Below, piece by piece: positions 7,431 through 57,564 of a DNA stretch of 64,000 nt. The DNA comes from Felis catus (taxonomy: Eukaryota): assembly GCF_018350175.1 (NCBI RefSeq), contig NC_058368.1, positions 22,012,001 through 22,076,000 on the forward strand. Reading direction: 5' to 3'. Under the pieces are notes generated by a model that saw nothing but the letters and a program-made list of their open reading frames with translations, had not been told where the DNA came from and did not search any database. A program made the translations under genes and the position numbers. Each line of letters starts with the position of its first letter. The first letter of the stretch is position 1.

Positions 7431-7945
7431 GTGGTTAAACCTTCATATTCTGCTTCTGGATTTTACACTGCAGTCCATTTTTCTGCAGTCCCTTTTACAG
7501 CCTCTGGTTCCCAGCTGCTTAGGAGTCACCTCACATTTAAGGTGTGCACTCGGAGACAGAAACTGAAATGGGGGTTGAGAACTCAAAATGCCCGCGGTCC
7601 CTTCTACAGCCTGGGACCGCAGGTGGGTAAAAGAAAAAAGGAGGTTGCAAGGGCTGGGGTCCACTCGGCCGAGGGTTCCGCCGCGTTCCCAGGTCTCAGG
7701 CCAAAGGAGCTGTCAGGGGGCCACCCAAGGCCGTGCCTCGGCTCCACTGCTTTATTCCGCCCGCCAGACCTGAAGGCTGCACTGGGCCCGCTCCGTTGGC
7801 GAGGCTGGGTTTCCCCGCGGGTCGGGCTGTTCTCCGACTCCACGCCACCAAATCCCACGACCCCAGATGCTCCCAAGCCAGGAAGTACTTCACCATTTAC
7901 TAGACCTCACCTCTGCAACAACTGTCCCGCCTCGCCTCAGGCGGG
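7416..7945 (-). other. SETDB2: SETDB2 non-coding exon 1 (start approximate)
   Basis: Minus-strand donor CAG|GTAAGA with last exon base 7416 (+ strand cttacctgtgaaatggg). The reverse complement closely resembles the human SETDB2 5'UTR as I recall it, and synteny with CAB39L fits. No SETDB2 coding sequence lies in the window. Confidence 0.75.
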
Positions 7946-8500
7946 AAAGGAGGACCGCCCAATCTCTTTCGTCCAGGCCTTCCTAACGCTAATCCCAAAA
8001 GGGAGGAGTCGTTCACCGAAAGCTCCCCCTACTCGGCCAGGAGCCCATTGGTTGGACACCCTACTGGGTCCACACCTCTGAGGATCCGCGCGCTTATCGC
8101 CGGCAGCGCGGCGGCGCCGAATCGCGCCGCCTCCGGATTGGCTGTCAGCGCTCTCGGCTTGTCTCGCGCTCTCTGGCTGGGCCAATGAGGATATCTGCAG
8201 TCGAGAGGCCAGCATCGTTGGAGTGGTGGCGCAGCTGTTTCCTCCGGTAGGTGTTCCGCTGCCATCTTGTGTGTGGCTAGGACTGGGCTTCTTGGAGGTT
8301 GGAAACTTAGTTAGCGGCTCCAGGTGTGGAGGGGTCCTGAGGGAGCAATGGAGGCGAAGAGCGGTCGGAGGGAATACACCTGGTGCCTTCCTCACTTACC
8401 TGAAATGGAGAGGTTTTCTTGGGCTGAGTCTCAGCCCTGGCTAGAGAGAGTGATGAATGGTGGTTCTGGTGGGGCGGGGGAGATCCCAAGCTTTGGTTTC
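7550..8500. promoter_or_regulatory. CpG island / bidirectional promoter shared by CAB39L (+) and SETDB2 (-)
   Basis: Only GC- and CpG-rich non-repeat stretch in an AT-rich window. Motifs: CCAAT 7959, ATTGG 8047, ATTGG 8137, CCAAT 8182; GC box CCGCCC 7955; E2F-like GGCGGGAAA 7940; ETS CAGGAAGT 7879; YY1 GCCATCTT 8261. No TATA box seen. CAB39L and SETDB2 are head-to-head in mammals (established). Confidence 0.88.
8200..8246 (+). other. CAB39L: Candidate CAB39L non-coding exon 1 (TSS approximate)
   Basis: Lies just downstream of the 8182 CCAAT box, with donor CCG|GTAGGT at 8246/8247. A weaker alternative donor CAG|GTGTGG is at 8323/8324. Confidence 0.5.
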
Positions 8501-10188
8501 TTCGTCATTGTGAGGGCTCTGCTGCCTTAACACTGATTCCTTGGGTGCCAGAGAGCTACACCCATAATCTTTGTCTCGGAAGACTGACCATCAACTCTCC
8601 TAAGGAGGTTGTCTGATGGATTGATTCAGAAAGGAAGAAGGCTGGTTATTAATAGAAGGGGAAAGAGGGAGATGCCTCACCACTATCCTCAGGTTAGCAA
8701 GAGACATCTTTATTGTCTGTCGTTTGCGAGGGAGTGACTGCTAAAGTGTTGGTTCTTGTCATTAGTTACCCTCTGACTAAGGCCATCCTTTGGTAATAGT
8801 AGGCGTCTAGTTCTGCGTTTGGGCAGTTTTATATATTGGTATGCAGCCAGCATTCCTGCAGTGGTCTTTTTTTAAATCTAGAAAGTGGTGGTCTTTGCAG
8901 AAACAGGGGAAGTGAAGGAAGAACTTTGGTAAATCTTTGTTTCGCTGGTTACGATCTGTTGAAGCTTTAGGAATTTCTTGGTCTGCCTTGACTTGCTTGG
9001 TTGCTTTGTCAGGGACAAGGAGGCGTTTGTAAGGAAAAGCACCTTCTGAGCTCTTTATGGGGTGGGAGGAAGAAAAGAATTACCTCCTTTTCTTGCTCTT
9101 TTTTTGTTTTTTTTTTTAATCGAAGTAGAAAGCACGCATTAGCTTTCATTTTGGGGGAAAATTTATCAGATCTGAAAACCTAGCCGATAAAAGGCTAATA
9201 TTTTTGATGAGAAGTTTTGACATGCATTAGACCAAAGCAGAGATACTTGCCTTGTTGCCTTGGGTTTAGTTTTACAGTTACCCAAGGTTAACTGATGACT
9301 CAACCTAGTCAACAGCAGTAAAACAATGGAATGATTAAAAAACTAATTTTCTTTTTAAGATTTTCTTTTTAAATCTTAAGAAGCCTAAGTTTCAAGAGTT
9401 CAATAATTTAGTGTTGAGTTGATGGCTAAGGTACTTGTTAATACCAGCTATCATAAAGTAGCTAAGAAAGATCAGTGGCTAAAAAACATAAAGAGCACGT
9501 AATGGCAGCTCAGTACTTGTTTGCCGAAATTTTTGTATAGCATTCTCATGTAATAGCATCTGATATATGTTCAGAAGTATAATTGTTGAATGAATAAATA
9601 AAATAATGCAGTAATTGGAAGGTGTGGACATACATTTCTTTTTAGCCTAACAAAAATAATTTTTTAACCTGCTTTCTAGAATACTTGATTGTCAGTTCTC
9701 TGAACTAAATTTATTTGTTGCTTCCAGTTTATGCATACAAATAATGTTATGGAGAGGTTCATAATCCTTTTTTGTGAGGTCTTTTTATGAAATCTTAATA
9801 CAGAGAAATTTAGAAATGAAGATGAGCCCTTAAGTAATAATGCTCTATTTGCCATTTTTTTTGAAAGCAGTTTCAGTAAATGAATACCAAACTTACCAGT
9901 GCTTTAGATCTCTTCTGCTTAAGAATTTCTAGTTTCTTTTTACCACTGCTTAAAGTCAAAATACTGCACCTGTAAGTTTATTTTATTGCTTGATATGTTC
10001 TGTAATTTTTAAATAATAAACTAGGGAAGTATGAGATTTTTCTTTGAAGAATACAGTTCTCTAAATTTCATAATGTATAATTTGAAGATCCTTACAGATT
10101 TTTTAAATAGTACTTTTGCATGAACAATGCTAAGTGATTTTAAGTACAAGTGATTTAACTTCCATTGGTATGTTAAGGATTATTTTTC

Positions 10189-16300: not shown

Positions 16301-17500
16301 TGGACATTCAAGTAGTGAAAAATTCCTCTAGGCTTCCAGGTAGACAGAAGACATTAGGAACAAATTTCTCAAGAGCAACATACAAAGCAGAACAGGCACA
16401 GATTGTTAAAGTCTATGAAATTGTAAGACGGGGATTTTATAACTATGACTCCATCCCAGAAAAAGTGAAAACCATGATAAATTCCATACACTAAAAAAAA
16501 GTTACATGATGAAAAGTATCATAAGCAACGTAAAAAGACCAGTGACAAGGTAGGAAGAAATAATTGAATTTACATCACAAAGAGCTGATCTCCTAGCTAA
16601 TCTCTTCTAATAACCTAGAAGTCAGAGCAAATGACTGGCAACCCAATAGAAAATTGGGCCGAAGATACGAGAGGTCATAGAAAAAGAAATGCAGCTGACA
16701 AACACACAAAAGATATTTAACTTCAGTCATACTAAGAGAAATATAAATAAAAGCTATACTAAGGGGTGCCTGGGTGGCTTAGTTGGTTAAGCGTCTGACT
16801 CTTGATTTCAACTCAGGTCATGATCTCATGCTCAAGCCCCAGGTCTGGCTCCTCTCCGAGCTTGGATCCTGCTTAAGGTTCTCTCTCTCCCTCTCTCTCT
16901 GCCCCTCCCCTGCTCGTGTGTCTCCCCCCCGCCAAAGCTATACTAAAAATTATAGCTACACTCAAGCCTTTCTCACCAAAATCCAAAGTTATATAATATG
17001 TTCTGTGGATTGTGGGGAAACAGGCACTTTGATGAATTGCTGGTAGGGATACAAAAGCACAAATCTTGGGAGGGAATTTGGCAGTATCCAACCCGTGTGT
17101 ATAATATACATATATTATATGTATACTAAATTACACGTGCGTTTACTTTTTGACCCGGGCACCTAACTTCTAGGAATCTGTTCTAAAGACACAGTGACAT
17201 AAAATATAAACTGGCATTTGTATGAAGCTACTCACAGCAGCATTACTTGTATTAGCAAAAGATTAGAAACAACCAAAATGCCTGTTAATAGGGGACTAGG
17301 TAACTAAAGTACATTCAATAGTGGAATAATCTCCATTCCCCTTCCAAGTTGCTGTTTTCTCCAGAAGTCATAAAAGAGAGTGTAGAAAGTCTACATGTAC
17401 CAACATTGAATGATCTGCAGAATATATTATGAAGTAGAAAAAACCCCAAAGGCATGAAACAATATATAATCTATAGGTAGAAGGAGGGAATGTGAAAGGT
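13000..17500 (+). mobile_element. Fragmented ancient L1 remnants, mostly + strand
   Basis: L1-like motifs aaatgagataccact...aagtgctggcaaggatg (13672-13766), atcagacaaggcaggatt (14602) and tggagggaatttggcagtatc (17068). Confidence 0.62.
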
Positions 17501-17827: not shown

Positions 17828-18174
17828 AAAATAAACATTAAGAAAAAAAGAAGAACTAAAAGAAAAATTTAAGAAGGAATGGAAATAAATTTACATAACT
17901 GTATAGCATTTTGGTGTCATAACCATACAAGAAAAGGAACAATTTCTAGTGACTTTAGGACCTAGATTTAGCATTATTATTGTTATATTGTTATTTTTAA
18001 AGTATTTTATGTATATTATTGGGCAAAATAGATGTAAAATATTGATAATTATTGAATAAAACCACAGAAGTTCATTAAGGCTATAAATTAAGAAAATGTA
18101 GTCTCAAAATTTCTTTGACAGATTGAGCAAAATGGAAGCGAAATACAAAAAAACATAGGACAGCTACATAACAG

Positions 18175-18383
18175 AGTACATGTTATATGGCACTGTGTCA
18201 GACACTATATATATATCATTTGACTCTTGCGTATACATATGGAGAATCATGATATTTTATTCCTAAAAGGTTCAGAGAGGTTACATAATTTGCTTCAGAT
18301 TAGACAGTTACAGAGTGGGAGGTTGAGATTTAAACCCAGATCAATGTGATTCCAAAGCCTGTGCTTTTTCTACTACATTATTG
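18175..18383 (-). mobile_element. MIR SINE inserted within the ZC3H15 retrocopy
   Basis: aggttcagagaggttacataatttgc...gagatttaaacccagatc...gattccaaagcctgtgctttttctactac matches the reverse complement of the MIR 5' half. Confidence 0.78.
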
Positions 18384-18386
18384 CAG

Positions 18387-18535
18387 GATTTCAAATATTG
18401 AGAAGAAAGAACATCAGGAGCTAAATGTTCTATTTAAACCAGTAGTTGCTGCTCAGAAAATACATTAATATGCAGACCCTAAGTCAGTGGTTTATATGTT
18501 CTTCATGCAAGAGCAATGCACTAAAGGAGAGAAGT
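18387..18535 (+). other. CAB39L: Candidate CAB39L 5'UTR exon (149 nt) inside the ZC3H15 retrocopy
   Basis: Acceptor ctttttctactacattattgcag|G at 18386/18387. Donor AGT|GTAAGT at 18535/18536. Confidence 0.62.
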
Positions 18536-19386
18536 GTAAGTTTTCTCTTATTTCTGATGGGGAAATGTAAACACACATACACATATATCCTTATATTGAT
18601 GTCGAAGATAAAAATTTTGTGAAAGTTGCCATCCATGACTGAAATTAATAAAAGATGCAAACTAAAAGTGTGGGAAGTAGGAAAGAAAAACTCTAGTAGG
18701 CATGGATTTTCATGATGCTGTTAAAAGCAAAAAACCCTTCAAAGCTTCTCTTTGTGATACTTAAAAGCTCTTTTAAGCTTTGCACAGCCTTTTTATAAAA
18801 ATTGGCCTCTAGGGGCAACTGGGTGACTCACTCAGTTAAGCGTCTGACTCTTGATTTTGGCTCAGGTCATGATCGCGTGGTCATGAGATTGAGACCAGTG
18901 TCAGTCTCCGCGCTGGACCCTGCAGGCATGGAGCCTGCTTAGGATTTCTCTCTCTCCTTTTTGTCTGCCCCTCCCCCCACTTGTATGCACATGTGTGCAT
19001 TCTCTCTCAAAATAAATAAATAAAAACATTTCTAAAAATTGGCCTTTGAGATACTAGCTTAAGTAAGTTATGTTTCCTGTGGAAGATGAGGGCTAATGGA
19101 TATATTTTGGGGGTGCTAGGGCTCCCCTTCTCTAAGCCACCCCCTCATACCACTACTGGTTTCTCCTGATGATAAAATATTTTCACTTAGTTCAATGCTA
19201 CTTTCTAAAAGTTCTGGCACTTGAAGTAATTGGGGTAGAGGGATTTTCCTGTTTTAATTGGTTTATCTATATATGATTATGGTGGAAATTTAATTTGTAA
19301 TTCTATATACCTGATAACAGTAAGAAAATATATTTGATTTTCTATAAAAGTTTAAAAATTAATTTTGAAGCTTTTCTTTTTGTCAG

Positions 19387-19460
19387 AAGCTGTGTTGATC
19401 AGTGACTTTGGTGAAGACAGAAAGTTGAAACCGATTTGCATATGATATACAACTTCTAAG
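19387..19460 (+). other. CAB39L: Candidate CAB39L 5'UTR exon (74 nt)
   Basis: Strong acceptor cttttctttttgtcag|AAG (NAGNAG tandem) and strong donor AAG|GTAAGC at 19460/19461. Confidence 0.68.
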
Positions 19461-32900: not shown

Positions 32901-32979
32901 GAAATCTATGTTTCTTGGGTAGAACCTATGGTTCTCAAGGTAGAATCTTGGTTCTTGGGTAGAATCTATGGTTCTCAAG
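32901..32979. repeat. ~20-bp unit x4 minisatellite with dimeric (A-B-A-B) structure
   Basis: gaaatctatgtttcttgg / gtagaacctatggttctcaag / gtagaatcttggttcttgg / gtagaatctatggttctcaag. Confidence 0.85.
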
Positions 32980-53995: not shown

Positions 53996-55192
53996 GGGGC
54001 ACCTGGATGGCTCAGTCGGTTAAGCATCCGACTGCAGCTCAGGTCAAGGTCTCGTGGTTTGTGAGTTGGAGCCCTGCCTTAGGCTCTGTGCTGACAGAAT
54101 AGTATATTGGATAAAAGTTATTGTAATAGAACTAACCATACACTCATAGAATGATATTCAAGATATTTTAAAAAATGGGAAAAAGTTACAAAATAATGTT
54201 TAATATTATATTTTTGTCTTAAAATATATTTATTTTGGAGGTGCCTGGGTGGATCAGTCAGTTAAGTGTATGACTCTTGATTTCAGCCCAGGTCATGCTC
54301 TCACAGTCGTGAGATCAACAACTAACAGCATGGAGCCTGCTTGGGATTCTCTCTCTCCCTCTCTCTCTCCCCTCCCCCACTCACGTGAGCATGCCCTCTC
54401 TCAAAATAAATAAATATTTAAAATACATATATATATATATATACAGGGTGCCTGGGTGGCTCAGTTGGTTGAGCATCTGACTTTGGCTCAGGGCATGATC
54501 TCGTGATTTGTGAGTTTAAGCCCCAAGTCTGGCTCTGTGCTGACAGCTCAGAGCCTGGAACCTGCTTCAGATTCTGGGTCTCCCTCTCTCTGCCCCCTCC
54601 TCCACTCATGCTCCATCTCTCTCCCTCTCTCTCTCAAAAATAAACATTAAAAAATTAAAAAAGTATATATATATATATGTGTATACATATATATGTGTAT
54701 ACATATATATGTGTATATGTATATATATGTGTACACATATGTATGTGTGAATACATATATATGTGTATACACATATATATATGTCTACACATATATATAT
54801 GTGTATATGTATATATATGTGTATACACATATATGTATGTGTGAATACATATATATGTATGTATACACACACATATATATGTATGTATACACATATATAT
54901 ATGTGTATACATACATATATATGTGTGTGTATACATACATATATATATATACACACACATATATATATATATATATATTTAGGGGCACCTGGGTGGCTCA
55001 GTCGGTTAAGCAGCTGACTTCGTCTCAGGTCATCGTCTCGCGGTTCACGAGTTCGAGCCCCGCGTCAAGCTCTGTGCTGACAGTTCAGATCCTGGAGCCT
55101 GCTTCAGATTCTGTGTTTCCATCTCTCTCTCTGCCCCTCCCCTGCTCACGCTCTGTCTCTCTGTCAAAAATAAATTTAAAAAAACATTAAAA
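53996..55192 (+). mobile_element. Four same-orientation Can-SINEs (53996-54095 truncated, 54238-54420, 54446-54662, 54982-55192)
   Basis: Four heads in 1.2 kb, separated by TA-rich sequence. Confidence 0.88.
54664..54977. repeat. Complex (TA/TG/CA) alternating purine-pyrimidine tandem repeat, ~310 bp
   Basis: Recurrent units such as tatatatgtgtatacaca. It generates the YI/VY low-complexity ORFs in the track. Confidence 0.95.
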
Positions 55193-56849: not shown

Positions 56850-56880
56850 CATTCTATATTGGAAGAAGAGATTTCTATAG
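56850..56880 (+). other. CAB39L: 5'UTR portion of the CAB39L first coding exon
   Basis: Polypyrimidine tract 56821-56847, AG at 56848-56849, then 31 nt to the ATG. Confidence 0.8.
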
Positions 56881-56991
56881 ATGAAAAAGATGCCTTTGTT
56901 TAGTAAATCACACAAAAGTCCAGCAGAAATCGTGAAAACTCTGAAAGACAATTTGGCCATTTTGGAAAAGCAAGACAAAAAAACAGACAAG
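56881..56991 (+). CDS. CAB39L: CAB39L (calcium-binding protein 39-like / MO25-beta) first coding exon, coding part
   Basis: Translates from ATG 56881 as MKKMPLFSKSHKSPAEIVKTLKDNLAILEKQDKKTDK (37 codons), the MO25-family N-terminus. Ends at donor AAG|GTATGA (phase 0). Acceptor ttttag|c at 56849/56850 follows a T-rich tract. Too short for the supplied ORF track. Confidence 0.97.
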
Positions 56992-57129: not shown

Positions 57130-57564
57130 GGGGCACGTGGGTAGCTCAGTCGGTTAAGCATCCAACTTCAGCTCAGGTCATGATCTCACAGTTCATGGGT
57201 TTGAGCCCCATGTTGAGCTCCATGTCTGTGCTGTCAGCACAGAGCCTGGAGCCTGCTTCGGATTCTGTGTGTCTCTCTCTCCCTCTCCCCTGCTCACCCT
57301 CTGTCTGTCTGTCTGTCTCTCTCTCTCTCCCTCTCAAAAATAAATAAACATTAAAAAAAATAAAAAATAAATTGATTTCAGGTTTTATGCAATTGTTAAG
57401 TCTATTGTCTTGAACTCTTAGTTCACTCTCTTGAGCCTCTGACCAAACTTGGATCCCTTTAGACTATAGAGCTTAAAAATCTAAGGGGTTACACTGGAAT
57501 ATAATGTTATACTGACATGAAGGATAAAATGGTTTTTGTTTTTTGGGTTTTGGTGGGGGGTTTT

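Follow-up and report, generated by a model that had tools for sequence, protein, structure and literature searches.

A ZC3H15 retrocopy in the CAB39L 5′ region, split by a nested insert, very probably became the spliced 5′UTR exon 2

Is the ZC3H15-like sequence in the 5′ region of the cat CAB39L gene only the relic of a processed gene copy, or has part of it been taken into the CAB39L transcript? The locus lies in a 64,000-nt stretch of the Felis catus genome (NC_058368.1, positions 22,012,001 to 22,076,000), and this whole stretch is called the window here. It was present at share 1.00 in 14 genomic or unlabelled sequencing runs, so it is not an assembly artefact; the RNA contig shares in the same run list are uninformative on splicing.

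The original prediction had placed a ZC3H15 retrocopy here by manual translation through stop codons, and database searches confirmed it. When the whole window was compared with mammalian ZC3H15 (P0038) by tblastn, one significant block was obtained, at 18403-18546, which covers aa 75-122 with 38/48 identical residues (E 7e-17). A protein search with this central block returned 59 database proteins from 196 candidates; those named at the top were all ZC3H15, with no better-matching different protein among them. Read through its stop, the block had yeast Tma46 as its top solved-structure (PDB) match (E 6.8e-6), in keeping with the ZC3H15/DFRP1/Tma46 family. A back-translated nucleotide profile of ZC3H15 then gave a single colinear path on the plus strand (18059-18734), with aa 38-72 at 18059-18163 and aa 72-191 at 18395-18734, and skipped 231 nt at 18164-18394 between both blocks; the three colinear pieces that had been predicted were also seen again in three-frame translation. 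The upstream block scored 26.1 bits and the downstream block 36.4 bits, each above 200/200 shuffles, while the insert was not significant in this profile (13/200 shuffles reached its score) and no significant ZC3H15 match lay beyond aa 38 or aa 191 (21/200 and 142/200 shuffles equal or better). With a cruder BLOSUM frameshift aligner, the upstream block was marginal (36 vs a shuffle maximum of 35) and the downstream block alone was not significant (reached by 8/100 shuffles). A candidate continuation after a SINE, aa 195-221 at 19105-19176, beat 25/25 shuffles by BLOSUM and was rejected, as it failed in the nucleotide profile (142/200) and was not colinear. The two blocks that flank the best-preserved part are as follows.

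18059..18163, plus strand: retrocopy 5′ block, ZC3H15 aa 38-72; spans the aa 59/60 junction of the parent; interrupted by stops at 18089 and 18116 and by six small indels.
18536..18734, plus strand: retrocopy 3′ block, now predicted to be intronic, ZC3H15 aa 119-191; spans the D148 junction and probably that at aa 178/179; has decayed, matching the parent at 81/118 non-degenerate sites.

The ZC3H15 frame is disabled by stops at 18089, 18116 and 18466, by frameshifts and by the insert. The C-x8-C-x5-C-x3-H finger is not intact, with Cys105 lost and the Cys119 codon cut by a predicted splice donor; the three stops and the loss of one finger Cys were found just where they had been expected. The retrocopy scored below the cut-off of the Pfam CCCH model. 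Compared with members of the ZC3H15/DFRP1/Tma46 family, the copy retains aa 38-191 only, with stops and frameshifts, and lacks Cys105, the second finger and the DFRP_C domain.

Parental exon borders were taken from L002, a metagenome contig of host-like vertebrate DNA, in which positions 701-1158 carry two ZC3H15 exons (aa 60-97 and aa 97-148) with AG/GT flanks and a 193-nt intron between them. This gave borders at Q59/V60, G97 and D148, and isoform gaps in database ZC3H15 proteins gave further borders after aa 25, 59, 178, 239 and 288. The intron positions given in the original prediction (RQ/V and K-G/A) agree with the first two of the L002 borders. In the window, both of these junctions are contiguous, as had been claimed in favour of retrotransposition, and D148 is a third without an intron: aa 96, 97 and 98 lie at 18466, 18469 and 18472, the alignments of both L002 exons abut at 18468/18471, and the aa 59/60 and 148 borders lie inside gap-free profile blocks. 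The aa 178/179 border adjoins an 11-nt deletion and is hence ambiguous. No poly(A) tail, target-site duplication or flanking repeat of the retrocopy was found; homology stops at aa 38 and aa 191, and the true ends were not located. These data support the reading of the copy as a processed ZC3H15 pseudogene that no longer codes for ZC3H15. Searches matched 0/560 candidates among viral contigs and 2/597 among metagenome contigs (L001 and L002), neither of them orthologous to this locus. The ZC3H15 gene on L001 is more distant and poor in introns, those near aa 61 and 186 being short. Separately, the 114-residue ZC3H15-like ORF P0108 is without aa 97-101 and probably represents either a splice variant at the G97 junction or a different retrocopy.

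As predicted, CAB39L is the host gene. The window carries its 5′ region on the same strand as the retrocopy, with a CpG island at 7500-8500, a donor at 8247 and coding exons at 56850-56991 and about 60600. A search at the CpG-island promoter with two SETDB2 motifs gave no head-to-head neighbour; the human neighbour there is presumably SETDB2. Human CAB39L (MLAA-34) has exons of 68, 138, 76, 138 and 142 nt, of which the 138-nt exon 2 is untranslated and is followed by the 76-nt exon 3, and the same table has a second 138-nt non-coding exon (exon 4) 5′ of the first coding exon (PMC5494830). The corresponding features in the window are listed below.

8179..8246, plus strand: first exon of CAB39L, which lies in the CpG island and has its donor at 8247; the start is set by assuming the 68-nt size of human exon 1.
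8615..8692, plus strand: alternative first exon, 3′ part; spliced to exon 2 in P0065 from the donor at 8693; 5′ end not located.
18692..18711, minus strand: human CAB39L exon-2 reverse primer site, 2 mismatches, 1 match, 0/100 shuffles; inside the retrocopy.
19387..19460, plus strand: CAB39L 5′UTR exon 3, 74 nt (76 in human); its translation matches P0101 and P0116 at their C-termini.
56850..56991, plus strand: first coding exon of CAB39L, start codon at 56881; 142 nt, the human size.

The human exon-1 reverse primer mapped at 8443-8462 (2 mismatches, one match, 0/100 shuffles), the exon-3 forward primer at 19205 (4 mismatches) and the exon-5 reverse primer at 57371 (2 mismatches), while the exon-2 forward primer mapped weakly; three primers (2F, 3R and 5F) among five scanned had no close ungapped match in the window. 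The mapped primers fall in gene order, and with the site of the exon-2 reverse primer located within the retrocopy, human too has this element just downstream of exon 2. The alternative first exon lies about 450 nt downstream of the main one, and a 77-residue uORF that starts in it runs through exon 2 in the P0065 lineage.

Within 17900-18800, the best acceptor (18387) and the best donor (18536) bracket the best-preserved block of the retrocopy. Their window-wide scores, calculated from frequency tables, are modest (ranks 131/3199 and 88/2334).

18164..18394, minus strand: insert splitting the retrocopy at aa 72, about 231 nt by the profile alignment; candidate antisense MIR SINE, by resemblance.
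18341..18386, plus strand: putative CAB39L exon 2 acceptor region, within the insert; acceptor at 18385-18386; 40/46 residues identical in three orthologous ORFs.
18387..18535, plus strand: putative CAB39L 5′UTR exon 2, 149 nt; a few insert bases and ZC3H15 aa 72-118, with the G97 junction inside; carries five upstream ATGs and the stop at 18466.
18536..18541, plus strand: putative exon 2 donor, made of the parental Cys119-Lys120 codons; best donor in 17900-18800.

Use of this donor cuts the zinc finger ahead of its third Cys and its His, and with Cys105 gone and the Cys119 codon cut, the spliced exon cannot encode the finger. Evidence for splicing came from ORFs of the orthologous locus, which were 2 of 59 matches in one set, 3 of 3 in another, and further ones among 10 new ORFs examined out of 105 matches. 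Seven of these ten came from this locus and three were other ZC3H15-like sequences; three of the seven (P0065, P0101 and P0116) were spliced. The first 26 residues of P0065 match 8621-8691 (E 6e-8) and then join at the exon 2 acceptor; over 47 residues it is 96% identical to the window, and its end is a stop codon that arises where exon 2 joins exon 3. Both P0101 and P0116 pass from the ZC3H15 frame into the translation of exon 3 (best matches at 19386-19415), and P0116 reaches exon 2 through the acceptor used by P0065, coming from a segment that matches 16509-16595 (E 7e-6) and that we take to be decayed L1 ORF2 sequence. This segment appears to serve as a further upstream exon in the P0116 lineage and has no good donor in the window. 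The ORF junctions thus show retrocopy sequence joined by splicing into CAB39L mRNA in other lineages.

The implied length of exon 2 is 153 nt in four ORFs, 138 nt in three (P0068, P0101 and P0116) and 149 nt in the window. The 138-nt form has the published size of human exon 2, and its base 59 takes the third position of a Cys codon; in the window homologue this position is a C, as the reported human C59T variant needs, an agreement expected about 1 in 4 times by chance. Exon size and primer position strongly imply that human CAB39L exon 2 splices retrocopy sequence, and this exon is very probably the one whose variant was reported to track the CAB39L level in leukaemia. The cat window has a 4-nt loss at the start of exon 2 and the stop at 18466, with both splice sites intact, and splicing is predicted in cat as well. 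P0059 and P0063 have Trp at the acceptor position and P0062 keeps the acceptor, which may thus have been lost in one lineage. Residues derived relative to ZC3H15 are common to all 9 in-frame ORFs at aa 109, 111 and 117 and to 8/9 at aa 105 (the frameshifted P0062 was left out), which indicates one insertion event. Taken as a whole, we consider it very likely that a ZC3H15 retrocopy was turned into the spliced 5′UTR exon 2 of CAB39L. The original prediction stands as far as a processed and disabled copy goes; it was incomplete in that the 231-nt insert and the apparent exon in the central block had been missed.

We propose the following history. Before the human and cat lineages separated, a copy of a spliced ZC3H15 mRNA landed in the CAB39L 5′ intron region in same-strand orientation. 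A SINE-sized element, probably an antisense MIR by resemblance, then inserted at aa 72, its end giving the acceptor and the Cys119-Lys120 codons giving the donor, by which aa 72-118 would have become 5′UTR exon 2; this order of recruitment is the one we infer.

The minus strand of the insert (18164-18394) resembles what we take to be a near full-length MIR. P0001 has the insert in another lineage, with 19/36 residues identical in the rest of it. A B-box-like site with one mismatch at 18335 on the minus strand was not above chance (128/1000 shuffles equal it). No second copy was found in the window at E<1, and the best nhmmer match (E 1.1) was similar to the reversed control; Rfam on the locus gave an AT-microsatellite match only and nothing on the insert, and no convincing target-site duplication was seen (best 9 nt with 1 mismatch, A-rich). 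MIRs are described as about 260 bp long, with their spread ended about 130 My ago (PMC5381342), and as 25-35% diverged from their consensus (PMC6822395). Divergence from the parent is 27% at the non-degenerate sites of the retrocopy flanks, which fits a MIR-like age. The insert postdates the retrocopy and occurs in several lineages, whatever its family.

The preservation of the exon was compared with that of its flanks. At non-degenerate sites the exon matched the parent at 74/87, vs 130/179 for both flanks (p 0.03) and 81/118 for the downstream block (p 0.008); against the upstream intronic block (49/61) it was about equally near the parent (p 0.51). Of 11 small indels, none lay inside the 153-nt core (p about 0.01), and the flank indels may be over-fitted. 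Between the window and three genomic ORFs, identity was 40/46 before the acceptor (45 nt, outside the first query), 58/108 downstream and 120/149 in the exon, a value biased upward because the ORFs were found using the exon block itself. P0059 was identical at 12/16 positions beyond the copy. These comparisons show, modestly, a slower apparent divergence of the exon and acceptor region than of the downstream intronic remainder.

What the exon does was considered from the modelled leader, which has 7 upstream ATGs, none reaching the main frame; two remain when exon 2 is skipped. Since five of the seven come from exon 2, our best guess is translational tuning: exon 2 would be a leader element whose upstream ATGs and upstream ORFs dampen or tune translation of CAB39L (MO25beta). 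This is the most likely job, and we would give it about an even chance. Most of the upstream ATG contexts are weak, and the one at 18425 is not retained in all ORFs. In 40 AML patients, expression was higher in 12 carriers of the C59T variant in CAB39L/MLAA-34 exon 2 than in 28 non-carriers, a small study that reports an association only and leaves the expression mechanism open (PMC5494830).

A more specific and rather unlikely possibility is selection on the translation of the former ZC3H15 frame. A Met derived at parental Lys109 is present in the window and in 9/9 in-frame orthologous ORFs (ORFs searched in that frame), the short uORF starting from it stops exactly at the exon 2/3 junction in the cat window and in P0065, and paired deletions in one lineage bring back the ZC3H15 frame. 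CAB39L/MO25beta activates LKB1-STRAD, and if such selection were real, what is left of a translation-factor gene would serve an LKB1/AMPK activator as a conserved switch of translation or as a source of micropeptides, and the C59T expression association in human would be explained.

The strongest competitor to a regulatory role, less likely than translational tuning but to be taken seriously, is that the exon is real and spliced yet only a tolerated passenger, its decay slowed by splice signals and purine-rich enhancers alone. This would agree with exon lengths that vary (149, 153 and 138 nt), with frames that shift across lineages, with the possible loss of the acceptor in one lineage and with an upstream flank preserved about as well as the exon. 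However, the same two splice sites persist across lineages as distant as human and cat, five upstream ATGs would be expected to cost translation, and a human variant in the exon was associated with higher expression (12/40 AML patients; small, association only; PMC5494830).

It is improbable that in cat the block is an intronic dead retrocopy only, with use of the exon lost here or confined to other lineages: the 4-nt loss at the exon start and the stop at 18466 would suit such a loss, and cat splicing is read from sequence, but both splice sites are intact and the best within 900 nt, and the spliced P0065 is 96% identical to the window over 47 residues. Slightly less probable still is a block constrained as a DNA element, such as an enhancer or an alternative CAB39L promoter, with splicing incidental. 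The conserved stretch does begin about 45 nt upstream of the exon, but the branch point and pyrimidine tract have to be in that same interval, and conservation drops past the donor (58/108). An unprocessed, DNA-level partial duplication of ZC3H15 is hardly credible, for although a 231-nt non-coding stretch ending in an acceptor between two coding blocks is mistakable for an intron, it sits at aa 72, where the parent has no intron, three parental junctions are contiguous in the window, and the L002 intron gives no significant match (10/200 shuffles reach it).

A retrocopy that became a leader exon belongs to a described class, that of retrocopy-donated UTR or internal exons, and this case was found in no paper searched. 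In the survey of Baertsch et al. (2008, PMC2584115), 726 events included 10 new 5′ exons and 6 internal exons acquired by the Type I route, in which likewise a same-strand retrocopy within a host gene donates an exon; in contrast to the events of that report, the CAB39L event extends beyond primates and takes its acceptor from another element that had inserted into the retrocopy. CAB39L is not named in its main text or six supplements, nor ZC3H15 in those supplements. Retrocopy sequence was also reported in 71 transcripts, likewise mostly in UTRs of protein-coding genes (Genes 2020;11:542, PMC7290577); one supplement of that paper had no match to CAB39L or ZC3H15, a weak result given possible other identifiers or an incomplete list. 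The MIR plus AluSp exon of BLOC1S2, as described in PMC6822395, is also an element within an element, the pair giving acceptor, donor and branch point, but that exon is specific to Old World monkeys and is built from SINEs in both parts, whereas in CAB39L the outer element is an mRNA retrocopy whose own codons form exon and donor, and the exon is old. The human CAB39L/MLAA-34 report, whose primers map in order to the window, does not discuss the origin of exon 2 (PMC5494830). Among papers on ZC3H15 pseudogenes this copy was not found by title or abstract start, and the search for CAB39L together with ZC3H15 gave a single paper, which mentions each of them once as a list entry.

The proposed history would give an annotated human 5′UTR exon an origin, in which an old retrocopy and a nested SINE-like insert built a lasting exon. 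It suggests that exons from very old retrocopies are missed by surveys requiring high identity to the parent, and the reported association of C59T in CAB39L exon 2 with expression in AML becomes directly testable.

Other features of the window were recorded in passing. A short interspersed repeat at 18812-19030, presumably a carnivore-type SINE, begins about 80 nt past the end of the retrocopy and has 39 blastn matches in the window including itself. A 20/40-nt minisatellite lies at 32903-32979, and a 315-nt degenerate TA repeat at 54664-54978 yields long spurious ORFs.
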